A stretch of 64,000 bases of DNA. Source: Candidatus Enterousia sp. (GTDB lineage: Bacteria; Pseudomonadota; Alphaproteobacteria; Rs-D84). Shown one piece after another: positions 1,927 through 62,971 of this stretch. The stretch is taken from contig JAZRIB010000005.1 of the NCBI GenBank assembly GCA_045645065.1, forward strand, positions 33,746 to 97,745, written 5' to 3'. The position numbers and the translations under genes are program-made. The notes beneath the pieces were generated by a model. It saw nothing but the letters and a program-made list of their open reading frames with translations. It was not told the origin of the DNA and ran no database searches. The first letter of the stretch is position 1. Every line of letters begins with the position of its first letter.

Positions 1927-2610
1927 ATGAAAAAAATAGCATTACTTGCATTAATGACTGTTGCGATGCCTGCGATGGCGAATGATTTTTATTACGCAGA
2001 ATACGCGTCCCCTGATACAGAACCCAGTACGGTAAATGTCACAACGCCACATACAACGAATGAAACGCACGATAACTATATAGGATTGCGTTTGCATAAA
2101 AACGAACGTATATCGTATGCGTTTGATGTTCGTGGTGGTGGCGGTACGACGTTGTACGATGATAACGTTGGCTGGGGGGTATATGTTGGTAATCGTTTGA
2201 CAGACTTTGTGCGAATTGAATTTGAAACGATGTATTCGGGTATTGATGACACAAAACGTAATTTAGATTTTAACTTTGATATATGGGCTAATATGGTAAA
2301 TATGTACCTGTATCGTACATATGGTAATGTTGTTGAACCATATGCTGGAATTGGTTTAGGTTTTTCTACAATTTGGTCTGATGTTGGCGGATGGGGGACA
2401 ACTGCAACCGATACGACATTTGACTTTTCTTATTCAGTTATGTTTGGTGTGAATTTTGCGTTAAACAATCGTGTTGATTTGAATTTAGGGTTCAAGTATA
2501 TCAAGTACGGTGATGCAGATCACACAACGTCGTCTGGCACATATGCGACCACAGACATAGACGCCACAGAATTTTATCTTGGTGCGGCGTACAAGTTTGG
2601 ATTGCGCTAA
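1927..2610 (+). CDS. Outer-membrane beta-barrel protein (OmpA/Opacity-like small porin family)
   Basis: Internal ATG at 1927 gives a signal peptide MKKIALLALMTVAMPAMA. The rest has alternating aromatic/hydrophobic beta-strand patterning and a C-terminal aromatic-rich end (YKFGLR). The upstream part of the listed ORF overlaps the PBP gene and has no RBS. Confidence 0.55.
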   Translation: MKKIALLALMTVAMPAMANDFYYAEYASPDTEPSTVNVTTPHTTNETHDNYIGLRLHKNERISYAFDVRGGGGTTLYDDNVGWGVYVGNRLTDFVRIEFETMYSGIDDTKRNLDFNFDIWANMVNMYLYRTYGNVVEPYAGIGLGFSTIWSDVGGWGTTATDTTFDFSYSVMFGVNFALNNRVDLNLGFKYIKYGDADHTTSSGTYATTDIDATEFYLGAAYKFGLR

Positions 2611-31655: not shown

Positions 31656-31891
31656 AATTTTTGCTCCTTATTTTATTAACTGTTTTAACCACAAAGAAAA
31701 CCGCCATCAAGGATGAAAACTCATCGGATGATGTACCACACGCCTACTGCGAACTGGTGTTGTTATAATGGCAATCTTTGGGATTTGCTGGCGTATTATG
31801 GAATAAAAAATAAACAAAGTCAAATATTTATTAAAGAAATGGTTTTGTACTGGACATTTTGTAATAAATTATATAGAATGCACTGCACATC

Positions 31892-31965
31892 GCGGGCGTA
31901 GTATAATGGTAGAACGAAAGCTTCCCAAGCTTTAGGCGAGGGTTCGATTCCCTTCGCCCGCACCA
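31892..31965 (+). tRNA. tRNA-Gly (anticodon CCC)
   Basis: Acceptor GCGGGCG/CGCCCGC, anticodon stem-loop AAAGC-TTCCCAA-GCTTT, T-arm GAGGGTTCGATTCCCTT, CCA. Terminator at 31966-31998. Confidence 0.85.
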
Positions 31966-31998
31966 GAAATTAACCGGCCTTGTGCCGGTTTAATTGTT

Positions 31999-32157
31999 GG
32001 CTATGCGGCGACGGAATTGAACCCGGCCAAGAGGGTTCGGGGCGCCAGTTGACGAGAACAAGTGAATACGAAGTTCGAGTCTTACGTAGCGAAAGGGGCC
32101 CATGGAGTGAAAACGAACATGGGAATCAGACATTCCCTTCGCCCGCACCAGAAATTA
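31999..32157 (+). repeat. tRNA-linked repeat element, copy G (~150 nt), ending in an exact 26-nt copy (32132-32157) of the tRNA-Gly 3' end plus 7 nt (first copy 31947-31972), followed by its own terminator
   Basis: ATTCCCTTCGCCCGCACCAGAAATTA occurs twice, 26/26 identical. The internal sequence is homologous to elements at 36868-36992 and 60166-60292. Confidence 0.6.
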
Positions 32158-32180
32158 AGCCGACCAATTATGGTCGGCTT

Positions 32181-32609
32181 TTATCTTGATTTGCCTGAAT
32201 TGCGTTTTAAGTTTTTATACGGATCTTTTTTGTGTTTCTTGTTTGTTTCGTCTGGGCGTTTTTTATAGACAGCTTTTATTTGTACCGTGAACACAGTGTT
32301 TTTTATTTCATCACAAATGTCGTATGTGTAATCAGTTTTATAAAGCGTATTTTCTTTCTTTTCGTTGTTGCACGTCTTGTGCATAGGTTGCAGATTTGAT
32401 ATATCGTCGTCGCCACCTTCGGATTTCGGAATAATATGATCCCATGTAAAATCTTTGATGTTATAAATAGGTTCATCGCACCATGGACAGCGTGGGGGTT
32501 GACCGCTGGCAATTAACAGGGCATAAATCTTTTTCAAGTGTTTGCGTGTTAACTGTTTTGGTTCTTGTTCCAGTGTCGTCAGCAACGCCAATAAGTCTTT
32601 CTTTTTCAT
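32181..32609 (-). CDS. HNH endonuclease
   Basis: CPWCDEPI...DHIIPKSEGGDDDISNLQPMHKTCNNEK is a canonical HNH motif. Confidence 0.8.
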   Translation of the reverse strand: MKKKDLLALLTTLEQEPKQLTRKHLKKIYALLIASGQPPRCPWCDEPIYNIKDFTWDHIIPKSEGGDDDISNLQPMHKTCNNEKKENTLYKTDYTYDICDEIKNTVFTVQIKAVYKKRPDETNKKHKKDPYKNLKRNSGKSR

Positions 32610-32627
32610 ATCGGTGATTACGGTTTA

Positions 32628-36107: not shown

Positions 36108-36656
36108 TTATCGTTTAGGGATAATGTTATTTTGAATATGCATAATCAATTTTAGCATATTTTTATCTGGATAACGATTAATAATTTCATCTGTGTTATT
36201 TTGAATTTCTTGGTTGGCAACCCTAAAAACATCTCCCATCGTCATTTGTTGCACGATTTCGATACGCTGTGCGCCACATTGGTACAGCTTGTTTTTATCA
36301 ATGCAACGTTGTTTATAAACTTGCGTCAGCGGATTAATTTCAAAAAAATAAACTTCTTGGTATGGTGATGTCAGCCCCATCCCAACATAGTACCACATAA
36401 GCATGTCAATAGTATTATCGGAAAAATGAATCACAGGCAGATGTGTTTGCAAAGACACTCTTGGATGCGCGGCTCCTGATTTAGAATACCACTGACACCA
36501 TTCATAAGGTTTTCCTTTTGCAGTAAATTGGCGTCCTGGATAAATATCTTCAATCTCAGATATGTAAAACTCGTCCATAAAACGAGAGTTCTGGACCGAT
36601 ACCATCTTAAAAAATCGTTTGTTTTCTTGCTGTTTCATAAAAAAGATGGTATACAA
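36108..36656 (-). CDS. Hypothetical protein, member of a local two-gene paralog family (182 aa)
   Basis: Clear similarity to the ORF at 37064-37591 (PGRQF.AK.K, VPV.HF.DN.iDmLMWY, W.CG...IEIV, EII.RYP). Confidence 0.45.
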   Translation of the reverse strand: MYTIFFMKQQENKRFFKMVSVQNSRFMDEFYISEIEDIYPGRQFTAKGKPYEWCQWYSKSGAAHPRVSLQTHLPVIHFSDNTIDMLMWYYVGMGLTSPYQEVYFFEINPLTQVYKQRCIDKNKLYQCGAQRIEIVQQMTMGDVFRVANQEIQNNTDEIINRYPDKNMLKLIMHIQNNIIPKR

Positions 36657-36744: not shown

Positions 36745-36832
36745 GGAGCGTTGGCAGAGTGGTAATGCAGCAGATTGCTAATCTGTGACCGGTATTATCG
36801 GTCCATAGGTTCGAGTCCTATACGCTCCGCCA
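36745..36832 (+). tRNA. tRNA-Ser (anticodon GCT)
   Basis: Acceptor GGAGCGT/ACGCTCC, anticodon loop in CAGATTGCTAATCTG, long variable arm, T-arm GGTTCGAGTCC, CCA. Confidence 0.85.
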
Positions 36833-36867
36833 TAAAAATTCAACCCACCTTTTGGTGGGTTTAATTT

Positions 36868-37021
36868 TTATAAAGGAAAGTTGGACGAGAACCGTCAAGG
36901 TTCGATACGGAGTAGATTTGGCAAACGTAGTACAGCCAAATCGTCACGAGTGGAGAGGGGTATCCCCGCCCACTGTGTGGGCAGGGGAGTCCAGTCCTAT
37001 ACGCTCCGCCATAAAAATTCA
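36868..37021 (+). repeat. tRNA-linked repeat element, copy A (~125 nt), plus an exact 29-nt copy (36993-37021) of the tRNA-Ser(GCT) 3' end (first copy 36814-36842); possibly a degenerate pseudo-tRNA-Ser
   Basis: AGTCCTATACGCTCCGCCATAAAAATTCA is duplicated 29/29. The internal sequence GGTTCGATACGGAGTAGATTTGGCAAACGTAGTACAGCCAAATCGT is homologous to copy B at 60190-60240. Confidence 0.6.
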
Positions 37022-37063
37022 CCCCACCGCAAGGTAGGGTTAATTTTTTTGTCTCAGAATTAT

Positions 37064-37591
37064 TTACTTTGTTGCCTGGTTTTTTATTTTTGCACAATAT
37101 GCAATCATATCATAGTGTGGATATCGTGCGATTATTTCTGTGGGGTTTTGTGCTATTTCTTTGCATGCGTCTTGTGCCACCTGGGCCAGTGTGGTTTCCC
37201 TGACTATTTCAATTTTATTACATCCACATTGCCACAGTCTTGTTTCATCTGGAACGCGATTTTTATACACTTTCCCATGTGGTTTTATTTCAAAAAAATG
37301 TATTGTTTTTTCTGTGTCCTCAAAGAAATCCATAACTTCCCAATACCACATCAGTATATCAAGTGCGTTATCGCAAAAATGAAACACAGGCACCGATGCC
37401 AATACGCCAAAACGTTTGTAGGTATCTTTGAATTTTGCAACAAACTGACGTCCGGGTGTATATTCTTTGAAATCAGTAATGTTAAATGCTGCGCTTAAAC
37501 CATCTATAATGAATGGGTCGCGCCACATCATTTTATATGACTTGGTCATCAATGGTTTTTGTGTATCTATAGTATTCTTAGATTGTGTCAT
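37064..37591 (-). CDS. Hypothetical protein, paralog of 36108-36656 (175 aa)
   Basis: See the paralog entry above. Confidence 0.45.
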   Translation of the reverse strand: MTQSKNTIDTQKPLMTKSYKMMWRDPFIIDGLSAAFNITDFKEYTPGRQFVAKFKDTYKRFGVLASVPVFHFCDNALDILMWYWEVMDFFEDTEKTIHFFEIKPHGKVYKNRVPDETRLWQCGCNKIEIVRETTLAQVAQDACKEIAQNPTEIIARYPHYDMIAYCAKIKNQATK

Positions 37592-55392: not shown

Positions 55393-55483
55393 GGAGTCGT
55401 CGCATAGTTGGTCTAGTGCGCTACATTGGAAATGTAGTATACTCGCAAGGGTATCAAGGGTTCGAATCCCTTCGACTCCGCCA
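55393..55483 (+). tRNA. tRNA-Ser (anticodon GGA)
   Basis: Acceptor GGAGTCG/CGACTCC, anticodon stem-loop CTACA-TTGGAAA-TGTAG, long variable arm, T-arm AAGGGTTCGAATCCCTT, CCA. Confidence 0.8.
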
Positions 55484-55522
55484 CAAAAATCAAACGCCCA
55501 AATTGGGCGTTTTATTTTTGTG
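55477..55522 (+). repeat. Direct repeat DR1 (attL-like): last 7 nt of tRNA-Ser(GGA) plus its terminator hairpin
   Basis: TCCGCCACAAAAATCAAACGCCCAAATTGGGCGTTTTATTTTTGTG. A near-identical copy lies at 60118-60165. Confidence 0.6.
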
Positions 55523-55649
55523 TTGACAGTTAAGAAAAAGCATATTAACATTAGTAGCGTGACTTGTGATAATTAATATTATCATAAGCATTGTCCACTA
55601 ATGTGGATAGATATAAATAGGGTTCATCGCCCAAAACTCAAAGGAGTTA

Positions 55650-56624
55650 ATGATGAAAAAAATTTACGACGATCCCAATGTCGTTATATACTCAAAAACT
55701 GAAACAGATCCCGTCTTTCAAGAAATAAAAACCTCTGATGGCAAACTTTTTAATACGCCAAAACCAACGATTTATGACCTGGGAATTGGGCTGGGGGCTG
55801 CGGAATTGATGTTTATAAACCCAAATACCGGCGAATGGCTACATGGTGGCGATGGTGAAATTATACCAATAAGCAAAAAGTCGAATAAAGTTGTGTTTAA
55901 CGAAAAAGTCTGGTCGTTAAGTGGTTTGGCGACGCATTTGCAAAGTAAATACCCCGAATCTAAATGTTCGGATGCCCAAGTGTATGATTTTTTTGCCTAC
56001 GTATATGAAGGTCGTACATTGGCAAAGATGGAGCGTGAGTTTTTGGAAAAATACTATAACATTTCCATACAAAGGGGGCGTTTTGAATTGTTGGCAGAAC
56101 AAAGGTATTTAGCAGAACAAAAACAATACGACGCAAATGATTTACATAACGATGTATATAAAATCGTAGATTGGCAAAACGATGATTTGACATCTGTAAA
56201 AGGGTTTAAATGGACTATAGATGGTACAAAATTTGCTGGCGAAACACGAAAGTTTAAAGAAATGTTCAAGCAAATCATTTCTTGTTTATATAATCATGCT
56301 CCACAGGTTTTGGATGTTGAGATGATACGCATCTTGTCGAACTCCGACGCATTATTTAATCCTACAATTAAAAAAATTATTAGTGTTTCTGGTGAAGTAC
56401 CTGTGGTAAATGGTAATATTGGTGGGTTAGAAGTTTCAAATATGCCAAATAATCATAGACATATTGATACGTATACCGATAGCATGTGGATAGAGGTGGT
56501 GTCTGGCTGGCTTTACATTTGGGGGCTATATTCCAATAATGATTTAAAAAAGAAGCTACAAGCGCTATTAAAGTTATACGGAATAGAGCCGAATAAGCTT
56601 ACAATATCAATTCAAGAACGCTAA
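55650..56624 (+). CDS. Hypothetical protein (324 aa), first gene of the candidate island
   Basis: ORF with a GGAG RBS. No family recognised. Confidence 0.45.
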   Translation: MMKKIYDDPNVVIYSKTETDPVFQEIKTSDGKLFNTPKPTIYDLGIGLGAAELMFINPNTGEWLHGGDGEIIPISKKSNKVVFNEKVWSLSGLATHLQSKYPESKCSDAQVYDFFAYVYEGRTLAKMEREFLEKYYNISIQRGRFELLAEQRYLAEQKQYDANDLHNDVYKIVDWQNDDLTSVKGFKWTIDGTKFAGETRKFKEMFKQIISCLYNHAPQVLDVEMIRILSNSDALFNPTIKKIISVSGEVPVVNGNIGGLEVSNMPNNHRHIDTYTDSMWIEVVSGWLYIWGLYSNNDLKKKLQALLKLYGIEPNKLTISIQER

Positions 56625-56655
56625 AATAAAAGACATCGCTATTTGGCGATGTTTT

Positions 56656-57714
56656 TTATTTGTGCAAAGTGTAAAACACGCCACGGGTTGTGCCTTGCTT
56701 TGATATGTGTCCCCGTTTAACCAACGCTTGTACCGCCTTGCGAATGGTTTCTGGATTTTTATCCATCGCAGATACAATCTGTGGCATGGTCAATTCTGGT
56801 GTTTTATGAAACAGTTCCAAAATCTGATTCTGTGTTGCAGACAGTTTTGCAACACTTGCACCACGTGCCTTTGCGATTTTGTCTTCCAGTTGGCGTTTTT
56901 GTGCAACCAATGCCCGAACAAAGAAAGTCAGCCATGGTTCATAGTTGATCTTGTCGCCCCAGATGGTTTTTTGCGTGCCACGTAATGCACGATAGTATGC
57001 GTCCTTGGTCGCTTCTATAATAGACTCCATAGATGCATATGGCATATATGTATATCCACTTTTCAGCATCAGCATAACAGTCAATGCACGCGACAAACGC
57101 CCATTACCATCGGTAAATGGATGGATGGACAGAAAATGTATCACAAACACCCCAATAGCAATAATAGGGTGAAAGAATTTGTCGGCCAACGCATCATTGG
57201 TCCATTTTACTGTTTCACTCATCAGGCGTGGCGTATCAAATGGTGTAGCGGTTTCGAATATAGAACCGATTTCATTACCGTTTGCGTCAAATGCAGCGAC
57301 ACGGTTGCCGTCTTTTTTATATTCGCCACGATGGCGGGTGTCCTTGTCAGAGTAATTCAATAATATTTTATGCAACTGCTTAATATAATTCTCACTAAGC
57401 GGTATAGACGCATAGTTTTCAAATATGGTATTGATTACATCTGAATATCCGGCAACTTCCTGCTCGTCTCTGGTGGCAAATGACTGACGATTGATATTGG
57501 CAAATAATGCCTCAATTTCAGTATCTGTCATACGATTGCCTTCTATACGATTAGATGACCCAACAGATTCAATTGTTGCAACACGACGCATAACACGCAG
57601 ATCATCTGCGGACAGTTTTACTGCCCCGCCAGTCCACGCACCATTAAATGCATCAATCTCGGCAATGCCGTTCAGCATTTCTGGGGTTATAATAATATCT
57701 CGATTATTAGGCAT
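56656..57714 (-). CDS. Fic-family protein (class II, N-terminal inhibitory SxxxEG motif) with C-terminal winged-helix domain
   Basis: Fic motif HPFTDGNGRLSRAL. Inhibitory-helix motif SNRIEG lies upstream in the same polypeptide. C-terminal HTH-like region (KNPETIRKAVQALVKRGHISKQGTTRGVFY). Confidence 0.85.
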   Translation of the reverse strand: MPNNRDIIITPEMLNGIAEIDAFNGAWTGGAVKLSADDLRVMRRVATIESVGSSNRIEGNRMTDTEIEALFANINRQSFATRDEQEVAGYSDVINTIFENYASIPLSENYIKQLHKILLNYSDKDTRHRGEYKKDGNRVAAFDANGNEIGSIFETATPFDTPRLMSETVKWTNDALADKFFHPIIAIGVFVIHFLSIHPFTDGNGRLSRALTVMLMLKSGYTYMPYASMESIIEATKDAYYRALRGTQKTIWGDKINYEPWLTFFVRALVAQKRQLEDKIAKARGASVAKLSATQNQILELFHKTPELTMPQIVSAMDKNPETIRKAVQALVKRGHISKQGTTRGVFYTLHK

Positions 57715-57809
57715 ACCAAATCCTTTTTATGTTTTACCAGATTTTACCAGATGATTCCCAGAAAGTCAATATTTTTCCCAGATAGCACATCGGCTTTATT
57801 GCGATATAA

Positions 57810-58487
57810 TCATTCTTCTATGTTGGAATATGATATGGCTTCATCTATTTTGTCCATCAACAAGCTAGCAAAAATCAATCGCTTTATAGCCATGTCCTTC
57901 GATATGATCTGATTTTCGTGTGCCTTGGGGTTTCTTATGCCTGTCATTGCGCCAGCAAATATGTTCATATATCCAATTTGGACATCTTTGCCAGTCTGTG
58001 TTTCTATGTTCTCAAAAGTTAACAGTGGGTTATTAGGCGAAAATACATGATTCATTAGGGCACTACCGTCTAGTTCCTCATTTCGAAATTTGCGATATAA
58101 CTTCTTTAATCTAGAGTTAATTTCCTTGAATGCAGACTCTACACAATCGGCATATTGTTGTGCTAGGAATTTGGGTTGTATAATTGGCAACAATAAGGGG
58201 TGAATACACTTCCAGAAAGGTTCGTCCCGAGCCTGTAAAATATGACGTCGTAAAAGCTCTAGATTTTTTGATATAATGCCAGCTTCTGGTAGTGTCATAT
58301 ATTCCGTTGCTGTATACAATAAATTGTCGGATATTTTCTTCCAATACATAGTGTCTTCCAGGTGGTTTTCATAGATAAAATCCGTAAGACTCCTATGGAA
58401 ACTGACGTATTCTGGGGTATTAAATCTGAACTTTCCCTTATAATCATGCAGTTTATAAAATTCGTTTATAATATCATCAATATTCAT
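57810..58487 (-). CDS. Hypoth_ymh/TIGR02391-like protein (abortive-infection-associated domain family)
   Basis: C-terminal FAGAMTGIRNPKAHENQIISKDMAIKRLIFASLLMDKID matches the conserved GxRNxxAH core of this family. Confidence 0.5.
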   Translation of the reverse strand: MNIDDIINEFYKLHDYKGKFRFNTPEYVSFHRSLTDFIYENHLEDTMYWKKISDNLLYTATEYMTLPEAGIISKNLELLRRHILQARDEPFWKCIHPLLLPIIQPKFLAQQYADCVESAFKEINSRLKKLYRKFRNEELDGSALMNHVFSPNNPLLTFENIETQTGKDVQIGYMNIFAGAMTGIRNPKAHENQIISKDMAIKRLIFASLLMDKIDEAISYSNIEE

Positions 58488-58815
58488 GTCTATTTATCCT
58501 TTATTCTTGTATATAGGATTTTATATGAAAAATACAAGAGTTTTATAGTGGGAAAATCCCTGTAAATTCCTTGTAAAAATGGAATTTGTATATGGTTGTT
58601 CGTGATAAAATCATACTCCGCCAGTATTCGGGCATGTATGCCGATACAGATAAAAAGCCCGCTCTCTAGCGGGATTTTTCATGCATTGACTCTGGTATGG
58701 ACGAAAACAGCCCATTTTTAGGCGGTGAAATACGGTTTTCTATACAACGCCCTTTTTTCGATAGTCAATGGTAAAAAAACAAAACTTGCACTTCTGCAAG
58801 TTTGTTATTTAACGG

Positions 58816-60024
58816 TTATTTTTTGTCATTGGTGTATTTTCCAATTTGGATATATATGAATGTCGCGATAATCCTTAATACCGCCAATATTATAAGAAGA
58901 TACGGTAATATGTTATATCCACCAAACATACCAACATACATCAATGCAATAGTTCCGCCCCATCTTCCAATAAAAGACATAACCTGGCGCGCGGCAAGGT
59001 ATTCTGCGCGATATGATTGTGTTACTAATTTTGTTTTTGCAAGGTTTAATATATTAACCGAAGACACTTGATCCATCGTCGCAACACCTAATGATACAGC
59101 ACCTGCATATACCAATGTGCTAAATCTGTTAAGTTCAGACATAAGGTATATTATCGATCCGATTAGTAATATTGAACAAAGTCCTACGACCCATTTAAAA
59201 TCTCGATTTGAACAAAAACGTCCAAACAACCACATAGCCATTGCAGTAAGAAGCGCAAAGAATGTTGTCCATGCACCCAAAGTTATATCTGTGTGAAAAA
59301 TATAAACAATGTACAATATTCCCACACTTTCTAATTCATATGCAAGCCCCCGCAAGAATTCTGCTAAAAATAATTTCCTCATACATAGTATCTTCACTGA
59401 TTTATGCATAAAACCGACCAGATCAGCCGATTTTTTAGCATAATTTTGTACAGGCGGCATTATAAATAGTAAATAACATTCAATTACTCCCATAAATACT
59501 AAAAGCCATGCTATATTTTGCAACGAACCTATCGTTATCAACACCCCTAATGTAATCGGGAGCAGAATTTTTACAATATTTGTTATCGCGACATCGGTTC
59601 CATAGAAAAACATCATACGGCATGCAGATACTTTATCTATCACCATTTGCTGTTGTGCCATACTGTATAATGCATGTTGTATACCATACAACATCCCTAA
59701 AATCATAATCCAATTGGCGGCATGAACACCTAACAATGCAATCAAAATTACCAGAATAAGTTGCACAACTATGTGTGATCCAAAAACAACCTTGATATTA
59801 CCATGCTTACATCGGTTTATCATCAAAACAAATGAAGCCATAATGGCAAAATAAAAAAATAAGTCATATATAGATACTGATATAAATTCATTAATTGAAT
59901 TACGTATCAAAAAAGATACAACAAATGTCCCTAAAAATAATTGTGAAATACCACGAAACACAGAAAAACTGATTAATATCCATTCTGTTTTATTTAGTTT
60001 ATACGTGATATCTTTCTCTCTCAT
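58816..60024 (-). CDS. Polytopic membrane protein, MFS-like permease (402 aa)
   Basis: About 12 hydrophobic helices. Terminator at 58778-58812 on the minus strand. Confidence 0.5.
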   Translation of the reverse strand: MREKDITYKLNKTEWILISFSVFRGISQLFLGTFVVSFLIRNSINEFISVSIYDLFFYFAIMASFVLMINRCKHGNIKVVFGSHIVVQLILVILIALLGVHAANWIMILGMLYGIQHALYSMAQQQMVIDKVSACRMMFFYGTDVAITNIVKILLPITLGVLITIGSLQNIAWLLVFMGVIECYLLFIMPPVQNYAKKSADLVGFMHKSVKILCMRKLFLAEFLRGLAYELESVGILYIVYIFHTDITLGAWTTFFALLTAMAMWLFGRFCSNRDFKWVVGLCSILLIGSIIYLMSELNRFSTLVYAGAVSLGVATMDQVSSVNILNLAKTKLVTQSYRAEYLAARQVMSFIGRWGGTIALMYVGMFGGYNILPYLLIILAVLRIIATFIYIQIGKYTNDKK

Positions 60025-60117
60025 GGTATGAGAAAAATATCATATATAAAAATTTAAAACAATAAAAAACTTATTTAGGTATACCAAATTGTGCAATAGA
60101 ATTTTAGTCCGCCAGAA

Positions 60118-60165
60118 ATAATCAAACGCCCCATTGTGGGCGTTTTATTTTTGTGCCGAAATCGG
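60118..60165 (+). repeat. Direct repeat DR2 (attR-like copy of tRNA-Ser(GGA) 3' end plus terminator)
   Basis: TCCGCCAGAAATAATCAAACGCCCCATTGTGGGCGTTTTATTTTTGTG versus DR1, about 42/46 identical with a 2-nt indel. Confidence 0.6.
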
Positions 60166-60340
60166 GGTTCGAACCCGGTAAAGCCACGATAGTGGCGTGG
60201 GTTCGACAAAGAGTAGGTTTTGCAAACATAGTACGGCAAAACCGTTAGGAATGCCCCACAGCACCGCCGTCCGCGGGGCGAGGGAATACTTCGCCCCCGC
60301 CAGGATAATAAAAACACCCCACAAAATACTTGTGGGGGTT
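60166..60340 (+). repeat. tRNA-linked repeat element, copy B (~127 nt), followed by a third degenerate copy of the CCGCCA-N-AAATAAT-hairpin-T-run motif (60286-60340)
   Basis: GGTTCGACAAAGAGTAGGTTTTGCAAACATAGTACGGCAAAACCGT is homologous to copy A. GGGGTTCGAACCCGGTAAAG is homologous to copy G (GGAATTGAACCCGGCCAAG). It ends ...TTCGCCCCCGCCAGGATAATAAAAACACCCC-hairpin. Confidence 0.55.
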
Positions 60341-60361
60341 GATTTTTATTCTTGGGCGGGA

Positions 60362-62971
60362 CTATTGTGCTGATTCCAGCTGACCCAAGGTTATATCACA
60401 CACAGACAATTCATCTGCAACGGTATAAGATGCTGCGTCTGTGGTCAGATTTCCAACATTAACCAAGTCTTCTTGACCCTGTTTGATTACATCAATGATG
60501 CGGGCAGGCGCCTTAATCTGAATGTTTGTAACAGGTGTTTTCAGACTAACATTAGCGTTGGTTTTTTCTTTTCTGATTTCACTGCTTATGACACTTAATG
60601 CATCATACAGTTCGGTATCGTCTGATATAATGTTTGCAAATTCATCCATATTTGGCCATGGTTCCAAATGGATTGTTTTGCCGTTTGTCCAACTGCATGC
60701 TTGATATATTTCTTCTGTAACAAATGGACAGAATGGTGCAAACAACTTAATAAACGTATCCAGTGTAAACATCAACGCGTTGACCGCAGATTTATTTTCG
60801 GAATTATACGCGCGTCCTTTTACTATTTCCAGATAGTTATTACAGAAATCCCAAAAAGCTTTTTCGATAATATCTAACGCTTGGGCATAATCGTTTTGTG
60901 CAAAACTCTTACTCGCGCCTTTTACTGCATCAGACAATCTTTTTAACCAAGATTTATCAGTTGCTTCTGTGATATTTGTTTTATAGTCATCGTCAATATT
61001 AATCTTAGAATTTTCAACGATGTTCATAACGAACTTGCTAGCATTAAAGATTTTTGTAACTAATTTTTTGCCTTGTTCCATTATTTGTTCTTCAAATATC
61101 GCGTCCGCCCCCAGTTTTGAACGTGCCGCCCAGTAACGAACCGCATCCGAAGAATGTTTTACAATCAAATTCATTGGTGTAATAACATTCCCTTTGGATT
61201 TGCTCATTTTCTTGCGGTCTGGATCCATAATAAATCCACTGATAAAACAGCGTTTCCATGGGATAGTATTTTCATGCAATAACGCCTTGGCTATTGTGTA
61301 AAACGCCCATGTTCTGATAATGTCGTGTGATTGCGGTCTGACATCAAATGGTAACGACAAATTTGTCTTGTCAGAAGCACAATTGATTGCAATTTGTGGT
61401 GTCAGCGAAGATGTCGCCCATGTATCCATAACGTCTTTGTCGCCAACAAAACCATTTTTTTGTCCGCGTTGACTTTCTGTATAGCCTGCTGGGGCGTCTG
61501 CCATTGGGTCTACGGGTAAATCTTTTTTGTCTGCGAAAATAGGGTGGTTATAGTCGACGTTGCCATTTTCGTCTATTGGATACCAAACAGGGAACGGAAC
61601 GCCAAAGAAACGTTGGCGACTGATACACCAGTCTTGATTTAATCCGCGTGTCCAGTTTTCATATCTGCTGTGCATGTGTGATGGGAACCAATCGATTTTA
61701 TTGCCCGCTTCAATCATGCGTTCTTTTTCGTCCATCAAATTAACAAACCATTGTCTGGATGATACGAATTCCAGTGGCAAATTACCTTTTTCATAGAACT
61801 TAACAGGGTGCACGATTTCTTTCAAATCGCCTTTCAAAGAACCGTCCGCACGCAACATTTCTACTATTTTGTCTTGGGCGTCTTTGATTGTCAGGCCTGC
61901 AATTTGATTAAAATTACGCTGTGCTTTTTCTTTGTTTAATGTAACAAATGCGCCTTCGCCATATTCAATGTTTGCGATTTTGCCATCTTTGTTAATGATT
62001 TGTTTGATTGGCAACCCAGACTGCTTCCACCATTGAACGTCTGTGATGTCGCCAAATGTGCAAACCATCATTATACCCGTACCTTTGTCCATTTCTGCAT
62101 TTTCAGATGCAACAATCGGAACAGGAATATCGAACAGTGGTGTAATTGCGCGTTTGCCAAAGAATTTTTTATATCTTTCGTCTGCTGGATTTGCGACGAT
62201 TGCAATACATGCCGGCAATAACACAGGACGTGTAGTTGCAATTATAAATGTGTCATCTTCGCCTTCTATTTTGAATTCGATATCGTGGAAGTGTCCTTTG
62301 ACTTCACGGTCTTCGATTTCTGCTTGGGCGATTGCAGACTGGAATGTAATATCCCACATTGTTGGTGCTTCAACAGATTGTGCCTTGCCCGCGGCGACTA
62401 AATCCAAGAAAGATGCCTGGGATATTGCGATTGAATCTTTGCCAATAGTAGAATATTGCAAATCCCAATCATAAGAATTGCCGATTTGTTTGAATATTTC
62501 TTCAAAAATCTTTTCGTCTTCTTTTGTTAATATCTCGCATGCTTCGATAAAATTCTTTCTAGAAATTTCCGTACGTGGTGATTCATCGCCTGGGTTGTGA
62601 ACTGGCTTAAAATTTGGGTCGTATGGGATTTCTGGGTTGCATGCAATGTTATAATAGTTTTGTACGCGACGTTCCGTAGGCAACCCGTTATCGTCCCAAC
62701 CAATTGGAAAGAATATGTTTTTCCCAGACATTCTTTGGAAACGTGCGATAACGTCTGTTTGAACGTAACTGAATATATGACCGATATGCAAAGAACCAGA
62801 CACGGTTGGGGGTGGTGTATCAATCATATATGTTTCACCACGTGGTGTGTTCGGATTGTATTTATAAACCGCATTATCAGCCCAAAAATTAACGCATCTT
62901 TGTTCGATTTCTTCAAAGTTGAGTTTTTTATCTAAGCCTTTTTGTTCTTTGTATGTCATATCAAAATCCAT
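60362..62971 (-). CDS. valS: Valyl-tRNA synthetase (Rickettsia-like TPPPTVSGSLHIGH form)
   Basis: TPPPTVSGSLHIGH and KMSKSKGN motifs. 869 aa. Confidence 0.9.
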   Translation of the reverse strand: MDFDMTYKEQKGLDKKLNFEEIEQRCVNFWADNAVYKYNPNTPRGETYMIDTPPPTVSGSLHIGHIFSYVQTDVIARFQRMSGKNIFFPIGWDDNGLPTERRVQNYYNIACNPEIPYDPNFKPVHNPGDESPRTEISRKNFIEACEILTKEDEKIFEEIFKQIGNSYDWDLQYSTIGKDSIAISQASFLDLVAAGKAQSVEAPTMWDITFQSAIAQAEIEDREVKGHFHDIEFKIEGEDDTFIIATTRPVLLPACIAIVANPADERYKKFFGKRAITPLFDIPVPIVASENAEMDKGTGIMMVCTFGDITDVQWWKQSGLPIKQIINKDGKIANIEYGEGAFVTLNKEKAQRNFNQIAGLTIKDAQDKIVEMLRADGSLKGDLKEIVHPVKFYEKGNLPLEFVSSRQWFVNLMDEKERMIEAGNKIDWFPSHMHSRYENWTRGLNQDWCISRQRFFGVPFPVWYPIDENGNVDYNHPIFADKKDLPVDPMADAPAGYTESQRGQKNGFVGDKDVMDTWATSSLTPQIAINCASDKTNLSLPFDVRPQSHDIIRTWAFYTIAKALLHENTIPWKRCFISGFIMDPDRKKMSKSKGNVITPMNLIVKHSSDAVRYWAARSKLGADAIFEEQIMEQGKKLVTKIFNASKFVMNIVENSKINIDDDYKTNITEATDKSWLKRLSDAVKGASKSFAQNDYAQALDIIEKAFWDFCNNYLEIVKGRAYNSENKSAVNALMFTLDTFIKLFAPFCPFVTEEIYQACSWTNGKTIHLEPWPNMDEFANIISDDTELYDALSVISSEIRKEKTNANVSLKTPVTNIQIKAPARIIDVIKQGQEDLVNVGNLTTDAASYTVADELSVCDITLGQLESAQ

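Follow-up and report, generated by a model that had tools for sequence, protein, structure and literature searches.

Three of the eight tRNA genes in the 64,000-nt stretch of Candidatus Enterousia DNA analysed here (the window, in whose positions all coordinates are given) are touched by layouts of duplicated tRNA 3' ends and inserts: tRNA-Gly(CCC) with a filler designated G, tRNA-Ser(GCT) with a scaffold designated S, and tRNA-Ser(GGA) with a scaffold designated X. The remaining five tRNA genes of the window were checked for displaced 3'-end copies, and none were found. We lean, somewhat beyond an even chance, towards reading the duplicated tRNA 3' ends as attachment-site (att)-type direct repeats at tRNA-gene hot spots, and the inserts as islets, or remnants, that lack a recombinase. 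The evidence comes from the polymorphism of the tRNA-Gly site within one species, from the absence of S in sister species and from island junctions at serine tRNA ends in this clade. S and X are clearly homologous in sequence, and the core of X may be a landing pad for recombination or a tRNA-trailer RNA of a new kind. Contigs and loci retrieved from related metagenome-assembled genomes (MAGs) are referred to by L numbers.

The tRNA-Gly(CCC) locus comprises the following features:

31851-31879, promoter-like site belonging to tRNA-Gly(CCC) itself (promoter scan)
31892..31965, plus strand, tRNA-Gly(CCC), intact, with CCA encoded (ARAGORN; Rfam, 68 bits)
31947..31973, plus strand, R1, first copy of a 27-nt repeat, which begins at A58 in the T loop and ends in the trailer, 8 nt past CCA
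31972..31990, term1, terminator hairpin, bidirectional, the orthologue of the terminator native to tRNA-Gly in related species (L138, L142, L144)
31991..32131, plus strand, filler G, 141 nt, non-coding
32132..32158, plus strand, R2, exact second copy of the tRNA-Gly 3' end
32157..32180, term2, bidirectional terminator common to the convergent HNH gene
32181..32609, minus strand, HNH endonuclease gene, 142 aa, a neighbour outside the insert

The repeat is exact over 27 nt (31947-31973 versus 32132-32158), with a spacing of 185. An earlier note on this DNA had correctly described an exact copy of the tRNA end, which it measured as 26 nt, and a terminator hairpin after each of the two ends, found here at 31972-31990 and 32157-32180. 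The tRNA-Gly(CCC) gene (window 31892-31965) has A at discriminator position 73.

The comparison of orthologous tRNA-Gly loci, proposed in the same note, showed that presence or absence of the insert varies among near-identical strains. The HNH protein of the window is also encoded on two other contigs. On L134, the flanks are nearly base for base those of the window, and directly behind the tRNA come one repeat copy, term2 and HNH, exactly 185 bp being absent. On L148-L150, HNH is 98% identical and two tRNA-end copies are present, without a terminator after the first; these enclose a 96-nt filler unrelated to G (H, in L148) or a 95-nt filler (H', in L149 and L150), the first 74 nt of which are common with the L148 filler. 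R2, term2 and HNH are constant across all conspecific contigs. With four fillings (none, G, H and H') between the same repeats in conspecific contigs, the tRNA-Gly site therefore has four or more alleles within one species.

The HNH gene occupies the same place after a LysM gene in three other species, with different genes between HNH and tRNA-Gly; being syntenic after LysM in species without G, it is a neighbour and not a part of the insert. Its synteny in several species also ruled out a candidate reading of G, R2, term2 and HNH as one 640-bp cassette with a 7-bp duplication. The 7-bp direct repeat in question, CGGTTTA, lies at 31984-31990 (end of term1) and at 32621-32627 (just past the LysM stop codon). 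In L138, a relative without HNH, everything between the two copies (G, R2, term2 and HNH) is absent, which is better read as a microhomology deletion between two TAAACCG copies. In both L144 (3992-4065) and L146, the orientation of tRNA-Gly(CCC) relative to HNH and rpsP is the opposite of that in the window and L142.

The tRNA-Ser(GCT) locus has the same layout as that of tRNA-Gly(CCC):

36745..36832, plus strand, tRNA-Ser(GCT) (ARAGORN, Rfam)
36814..36842, plus strand, R1 of the S locus, 29-nt exact repeat, which begins at A58 in the T loop and ends 10 nt past CCA
36862..36992, plus strand, scaffold S, with a core at 36900-36951 made up of helix P2 and hairpin H2 (loop AAACGUAGUACA), followed by a GC-rich hairpin
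36993..37021, plus strand, R2 of the S locus, followed by a terminator at 37021-37040

Here the exact 29-nt repeat is nested in a 59-nt repeat of 86% identity that runs through the terminator, and the spacing is 179. Both exact repeats, of 27 and 29 nt, begin at A58 of the T loop. In L139-L141, whose flanking oxidoreductase shows 82-86% identity, one terminator and then cysS come after the tRNA, and S is absent. In the closest relative, L138 (94%), a DUF559 cassette of ~490 bp is found at tRNA-Ser(GCT) in place of S. Because sister species lack S and the closest relative carries a different cassette, S is, as judged from these sequence comparisons, a lineage-specific insertion. The L138 cassette holds a single gene (2017-2475, minus strand) for a DUF559 (Vsr-like) endonuclease, and its flanks are CTCCGCCATATTATT and similar hairpin sequences. 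In the window, tRNA-Ser(GCT) and S are flanked by two paralogous genes without a Pfam match, encoding 182 and 175 aa (36108-36656 and 37064-37591, both on the minus strand).

At tRNA-Ser(GGA), an island separates the tRNA from the scaffold:

55393..55483, plus strand, tRNA-Ser(GGA), the gene directly before X in related genomes
55484..60107, recombinase-less island of 4.6 kb between tRNA-Ser(GGA) and X
60108..60145, plus strand, tRNA-Ser 3' fragment TCCGCCA with trailer and terminator, an attR-like junction
60147..60288, plus strand, scaffold X, with a 5' module containing GGGGTTCGAACCC, the P2/H2 core at 60201-60252 and hairpin H3 at ~60261-60279
60289..60302, plus strand, degenerate copy of the tRNA-Ser(GGA) 3' end, CTTCGCCCCCGCCA, with 2 mismatches, followed by a terminator at 60317-60337

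The island carries a 324-aa open reading frame (ORF) of unknown kind together with Fic/DOC, Hypoth_Ymh and a major facilitator superfamily (MFS) transporter. Repeats of 35-50 nt, each made up of tRNA end and terminator, flank the island, and the fragment and terminator at the 60108..60145 junction are closely similar to the tRNA-Ser(GGA) 3' end plus terminator.

A pattern scan of 185,579 species-representative genomes yielded ten true X-type loci, all from gut alphaproteobacterial MAGs. In six of the ten, X lies right behind tRNA-Ser(GGA) and its terminator, and the last 14 nt of X match the 3' end of the species' own tRNA across four acceptor/T-stem variants. Where X is detached from the tRNA (in the window, and in three of the ten loci, L124, L127 and L132), it is preceded by a (C)TCCGCCA fragment and a terminator, which on sequence grounds is the far junction of an inserted island. 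R2 of X in the window, 4.6 kb from tRNA-Ser(GGA), has 2 mismatches. That R2 tracks an adjacent tRNA yet has drifted at this distance suggests that the identity between R2 and tRNA is kept by recombinational homogenisation of nearby copies, rather than by selection on R2.

An alternative 5' module (GCAGTGTGGACAACGCGTTCGTAATCTGTGATTCC type) replaces the usual one in L123, L131 and L132, which indicates that modules are shuffled between copies. The start of this alternative module (GCAGTGTGGACAACGCGTTCGTAATCTGTGATTCC), without a core, was also seen past X and its terminator at L129:1255-1320. At L131:260-520 (minus strand), downstream of tRNA-Gly(GCC), the repeat GCAAAGGGGCGAGTTGCGAGGCGAGGG follows each of two terminators; it includes the reverse complement of the tRNA-Gly(GCC) T-stem and acceptor 3' strand, and the hairpin GGGGGGTATCCCCCC of L131 resembles GGGGTATCCCC in S.

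The tRNA-Ser 3' ends (...CTCCGCCA) are junctions of larger islands in this clade, some of which encode a large serine recombinase. Island junctions at (C)TCCGCCA were found in the window, L124, L127 and L132. The X copy of L128 breaks off at CAGCCCCGCCA within hairpin H3, and the adjoining DNA encodes a 538-aa large serine recombinase with ~8000 close homologues (85-93% amino acid identity) in gut alphaproteobacterial MAGs. One identical recombinase protein occurs at tRNA-Ser(TGA) in some genomes and at tRNA-Ser(GGA) in others, and the junction is always CCGCCA joined to GAAATATTAGAC. A homologous island end, ~90% identical over its first ~100 nt, follows R2 of X in L124. Islands thus abut tRNA-Ser ends as well as R2 and H3 of X, and we therefore read the serine tRNA 3' ends and their look-alikes inside X (R2, and CCCCGCCA in H3) as island entry points. 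The recombinase gene (L128:1081-2694; L151-L157:4001-5620) has a DUF2924 gene before it and a CoiA_N-like gene after it.

Under the explanation that we favour, DNA carrying its own copy of a tRNA 3' end (A58 through CCA, a few trailer bases and often the terminator) would recombine with the tRNA gene. The product would have the order tRNA, repeat, insert, repeat, in which one repeat completes a working tRNA and the other is a displaced-type fragment, and recombination between the repeats would excise the insert again. Because the inserts encode no recombinase, they would either be non-autonomous, as islets mobilised in trans or carried along by neighbouring islands, or be what decay has left of larger islands. 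G would be one of the alleles of the tRNA-Gly site, a patchwork with tRNA T-arm fragments that is probably not functional. S and X would form a separate, homologous type on serine tRNAs, with a strongly constrained core whose role is probably that of a plus-strand structured RNA, produced when transcription from the tRNA promoter reads through, or else of a DNA site bound by protein. The start of the repeats at A58 fits the usual position of displaced tRNA fragments, since 3760 of the 3919 islands in Islander have a 3' tDNA fragment and 1836 have an attP in the T-stem region (PMC4383910). The suggestion in the earlier note of an integrative element or an attL/attR scar is thereby upheld in general terms by the tRNA-Gly polymorphism, the absence of S in sister species and the island junctions of the clade; the recombination mechanism, the enzymes, the direction of events and any transcription we infer from sequence.

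Several points weigh against this explanation. Serine-recombinase integration does not by itself create a duplication of 27-29 nt unless attP already carries the sequence, and 180-185 bp would make a very small circle for integrase chemistry. Among the ~50 window ORFs scanned there is no tyrosine integrase, transposase or reverse transcriptase, and the recombinase of L128 is the single one among the ten X loci, with none near the other nine. The simplest integration model puts the native flank after the displaced fragment; the G allele, instead, has term1 after the intact tRNA, and the native tRNA-Gly terminator in other species (L138, L142, L144) is of the term1 type. With a native-type terminator thus directly behind the intact tRNA, the state of L134 may have arisen secondarily, through repeat-repeat recombination that removed the insert, and need not represent a never-occupied site. 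The T-arm fragments in the fillers fit template switching equally well. Finally, X is conserved at 98% across species, above the level of the tRNA and with a freely drifting 5-nt loop, which is unlike a mere scar.

Inside the inserts, we found no ORF of note, no promoter-like site and no terminal inverted repeats except the terminators. The hallmarks of miniature inverted-repeat transposable elements, terminal inverted repeats with a short target-site duplication, are lacking: only the terminator hairpins are inverted, and the duplication is 27-59 nt long. No parent element carrying sequence of G, H, S or X turned up in the phages, plasmids and viral contigs searched; X had no BLAST match in phages and plasmids, and a strict S/X motif scan of viral contigs gave zero matches. 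A loose motif (GAGTAG-N7-AAACNTAGTAC) matched viral contigs more than 120 times (L001-L120), and was discarded as all matches fell in one conserved coding stretch of a widespread phage gene family. A metagenome scan with an S-specific pattern gave three matches, all by chance, and no S/X-type elements were found near other tRNAs and serine-recombinase loci.

The homology of S and X is evident from formal alignment, with a Smith-Waterman score of 48 versus 16 +/- 2.8 for shuffles (none of 500 as high) and a common core of 54 nt. The motif GAGTAG-N5-GCAAAC-N-TAGTAC occurs in the window only at positions 36910 and 60211, with 0 expected by chance. The alignment of G with X was not significant (164 of 500 shuffles as high), and G has in common with S one 13-nt motif only, GTTG(G)ACGAGAAC (21 of 500 shuffles as high). 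With all filters off, a covariance model derived from S and X recovered X with 123 bits and S with 75 bits, and did not report G. The earlier note had placed all three loci in one family with a common core, and had named formal alignment and a covariance-model search as checks; the relation between S and X survives both, and G does not join it in either. As G is not demonstrably related to S and X in sequence, a single family of three is unsupported, and what the three have in common is architecture. Derivation of the scaffolds from the 5' parts of their own tRNAs was considered and abandoned, as only T-arm-sized matches were obtained.

Across the six loci in which X is adjacent to tRNA-Ser(GGA), mean pairwise identity is 98% for the X core, compared with 94% for tRNA-Ser(GGA), 74% for rpoZ, 80% for the first terminator and 59% for the second terminator. 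The 3' side of hairpin H3 reaches 100% and its 5-nt loop 53%. Because this loop drifts inside an otherwise frozen 100 nt, the sequences indicate long-term purifying selection on X, and not recent spread. Such conservation across six species is also what would be expected if S, X and perhaps G were small RNA genes, that is, tRNA-trailer RNAs made by read-through, whose 3' terminus is a tRNA-like acceptor/T strand with CCA. In that case the 3' repeat would be a functional module trimmed by tRNA 3' maturation, rather than a trace of recombination. We regard this alternative as a distinct possibility, if a minority one; it overlaps with the explanation favoured here as regards the S/X core.

The structure predicted for the core also suits an RNA. 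RNAalifold returned a helix P2 (GUUCGAC with GUCAGGAAU) enclosing hairpin H2, which has 8 bp and a conserved 12-nt loop, AAACRUAGUACR. Over twelve sequences, seven of them distinct, 105 of 105 cells in P2 and H2 are standard pairs, compared with 30-55% when the partner is slid. All 8 pairs of H2 are kept, with 2 double compensatory changes between S and X, and the 7 pairs of P2 are kept via three one-sided G-U changes, compatible with the plus strand only. In L131, a single base differs on either side, so that two mismatches become pairs in what may be a 5'/3' helix. S and X have fold z-scores of -3.9 and -2.8, the orientation of X is always that of the tRNA with a terminator directly after it, and no Rfam family matches S or X even at E = 10. 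The conserved structured RNA domain of the earlier note thus finds support, if thin, in paired changes for S and X only; G (z = -1.8) is weakly structured.

Against small RNA genes stands the terminator ahead of the scaffold: the promoter scan found nothing promoter-like from the first terminator up to the scaffold, so that any RNA would depend on read-through from the tRNA promoter. The pairing score was matched by 6 of 500 shuffles, and the covariation comes from seven distinct sequences that amount to effectively two or three lineages. P2 is not the fold of minimum energy for X alone, and the 5' strand of the 3' minihelix is uncompensated when R2 changes. Moreover, S, G and H vary between strains or species and are thus dispensable, H is unstructured (z = +0.66), and inverted-repeat protein sites can likewise change on both sides. 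A coding reading of X (ATG at CAATGAG, open frame) was rejected: a ribosome-binding site is lacking, most of the substitutions that separate S from X are paired changes in stems, and those in the variable loop would alter amino acids without restraint.

On its sequence, the S/X core is a candidate structured RNA or protein-bound site, possibly an island landing pad. A tentative and rather doubtful extension sees in it a new family of structured tRNA-trailer RNAs, or else a landing pad of RNA or DNA, in gut Alphaproteobacteria, in which CCCCGCCA (H3) and R2 would divert islands or give a CCA terminus. If so, the tRNA-end copies of X would draw serine-recombinase islands off the tRNA's own end; alternatively, a tRNA-like CCA terminus would allow processing or even charging of the S/X RNA.

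An origin of the layout without a site-specific recombinase is unlikely overall, and a serious rival for the fillers. The tRNA end and terminator would have undergone partial tandem duplication, by unequal crossing-over or by template switching during replication at the palindromic terminator and the conserved T-loop sequence; the second copy would be decaying, and the fillers would be debris of rearrangement. This agrees with the S repeat, which covers tRNA end and terminator alike (59 nt, 86%), and with G, which opens directly after the terminator with an inverted stretch like the local tRNA-Gly 3' end (32007-32024); a direct-inverted-direct pattern is the expectation for two template switches. 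T-arm pieces of other tRNAs occur in the fillers, with a 14/14 match to the tRNA-Leu(CAG) T arm in G (32070-32083), and a tRNA-Gly-like piece, GGCGTGGGTTCGA, as well as a tRNA-Ser-like one in X. These pieces could stem from earlier T-loop recombination, from template switching or from RNA T-loop modules. The H allele retains a longer, diverged tRNA-Gly T-arm piece than G or H', and the inversion of tRNA-Gly relative to its flanks in L144 and L146 also speaks for local rearrangement. A duplication in place does not account, however, for scaffolds that are homologous at two tRNA genes and unlike their own tRNAs, which argues against independent origins. S is confined to one lineage with an exact 29-nt repeat, and its sisters have a clean single terminator. 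Larger, recombinase-bearing islands occupy the same junctions, and the conservation of X is not expected of debris.

It is very improbable that scaffold and tRNA-end copy form a guide RNA (an HNH partner, a TnpB/IscB omega-RNA or an IS110 bridge RNA) aiming a nuclease or recombinase at the tRNA gene. The layout of scaffold, 27-29 nt equal to the target, and terminator would suit such a guide, the HNH gene abuts G, and nuclease genes (DUF559, CoiA-like) are found at similar sites in L138 and L124. The 142-aa HNH protein, however, is encoded after LysM in species without G and accompanies all four alleles, including the insert-free one; S and X have no nuclease or recombinase partner, the window ORFs scanned include no TnpB, IscB or IS110 gene, and no HEARO or omega-RNA family of Rfam was matched. 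Equally improbable are retro-copies made by a reverse transcriptase stopping at T-loop position 58 on tRNA-linked transcripts: every repeat starts at A58, and 1-methyladenosine at this position (m1A58) is a known reverse-transcriptase stop (PMC8599865), but the repeats extend 8-10 nt past CCA (in S also over the terminator), so that they come from DNA or precursor and not from mature tRNA, and no reverse transcriptase was found among the ORFs scanned.

The eight tRNA genes, called by ARAGORN and Rfam, are the only RNA genes recognised in the window. In the Rfam 15 scan only these reached the gathering threshold, and permissive scans (E <= 10) gave chance-level matches. A second tRNA was found neither by ARAGORN nor by the Rfam tRNA model (to E <= 10) in 31850-32250, 36830-37060 and 60050-60400, and the tandem pseudo-tRNA considered in the earlier note fails on these models. 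ARAGORN called no transfer-messenger RNA (tmRNA) in the window, including the two-piece alphaproteobacterial form. The sole match of this type, to tmRNA_permuted (12.9 bits, E = 1.5), covers 31938-32047, from the tRNA-Gly T arm over term1 into the first ~57 nt of G. A tmRNA-like reading based on the resemblance of GGGUUCGAC and GCAAAC to a tmRNA 5' end and tag start was dropped, as ARAGORN and Rfam did not support it. The SmpB gene (18902-19393) adjoins a minus-strand cluster of four tRNAs, and a tmRNA gene was not detected in the window. The neighbouring genes are housekeeping genes, encoding among others S16, RimM, TrmD, GroEL, LigA, SmpB, two class I tRNA synthetases and a sigma-70 factor, and the close DNA relatives of the window are gut Alphaproteobacteria MAGs only (Candidatus Enterousia and relatives). 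The window is chromosomal DNA, phage being excluded.

Displaced tRNA fragments are standard markers of genomic islands, and island finders drop cases without an integrase, so that inserts of the present kind are missed. The window illustrates what such filters lose in an uncultured gut lineage: one tRNA site with four alleles of tiny gene-less inserts, serine tRNA ends as common entry points for several kinds of cargo, and a 100-nt element behind tRNA-Ser(GGA) that is more conserved than the tRNA. Should X prove to be an RNA or a landing pad, the handling of integration at tRNA genes by small genomes would gain a new component, and X would also serve well as an anchor when islands are mapped in these MAGs.

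Among known systems, the non-coding RNA 3'ETS-leuZ of E. coli lies between the last tRNA and the terminator and is expressed from the tRNA promoter. The present inserts likewise lie between a tRNA and a terminator, but 3'ETS RNAs have no preceding terminator and no tRNA 3'-end copy, and are not polymorphic insertions. Cis-mobilizable elements (CIMEs), which are remnants of integrative and conjugative or integrative and mobilizable elements, are comparable to the inserts: both have attL/attR-type bounds, lack a recombinase and occur in tandem with larger elements at one site (for the inserts, window 55.4-60.3 kb and L124). The inserts are att-flanked and without recombination and transfer genes, as CIMEs are; CIMEs, however, are kilobases long and derive from known integrative and conjugative elements, whereas the inserts are far smaller and their mobilisation in trans is only putative.

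The tRNA-integrated islands collected in Islander share with the inserts an intact tRNA with a same-orientation cognate 3' fragment forming a direct repeat from the T loop to past the 3' end (exact over 27 and 29 nt here), a tRNA terminator supplied by the insert, and strain-variable presence. Relatives without the insert break at the repeat (L134, L139-L141), although L134 may be a secondary deletion. The inserts differ from these islands in their size of 95-160 bp, in having no integrase, either inside them or among the window ORFs scanned, nor any other gene, and in the native-type terminator of the G allele, which follows the intact tRNA and not the fragment. Large-serine-recombinase elements, which integrate at fixed chromosomal sites, have no recombinase in the window, their action here is inferred from junctions only, and they leave the tRNA-Gly site unexplained. 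Nonetheless, they form an abundant family in this clade at tRNA-Ser 3' ends, with a constant junction of CCGCCA and GAAATATT, and the island of one member abuts a tRNA-end look-alike inside X.

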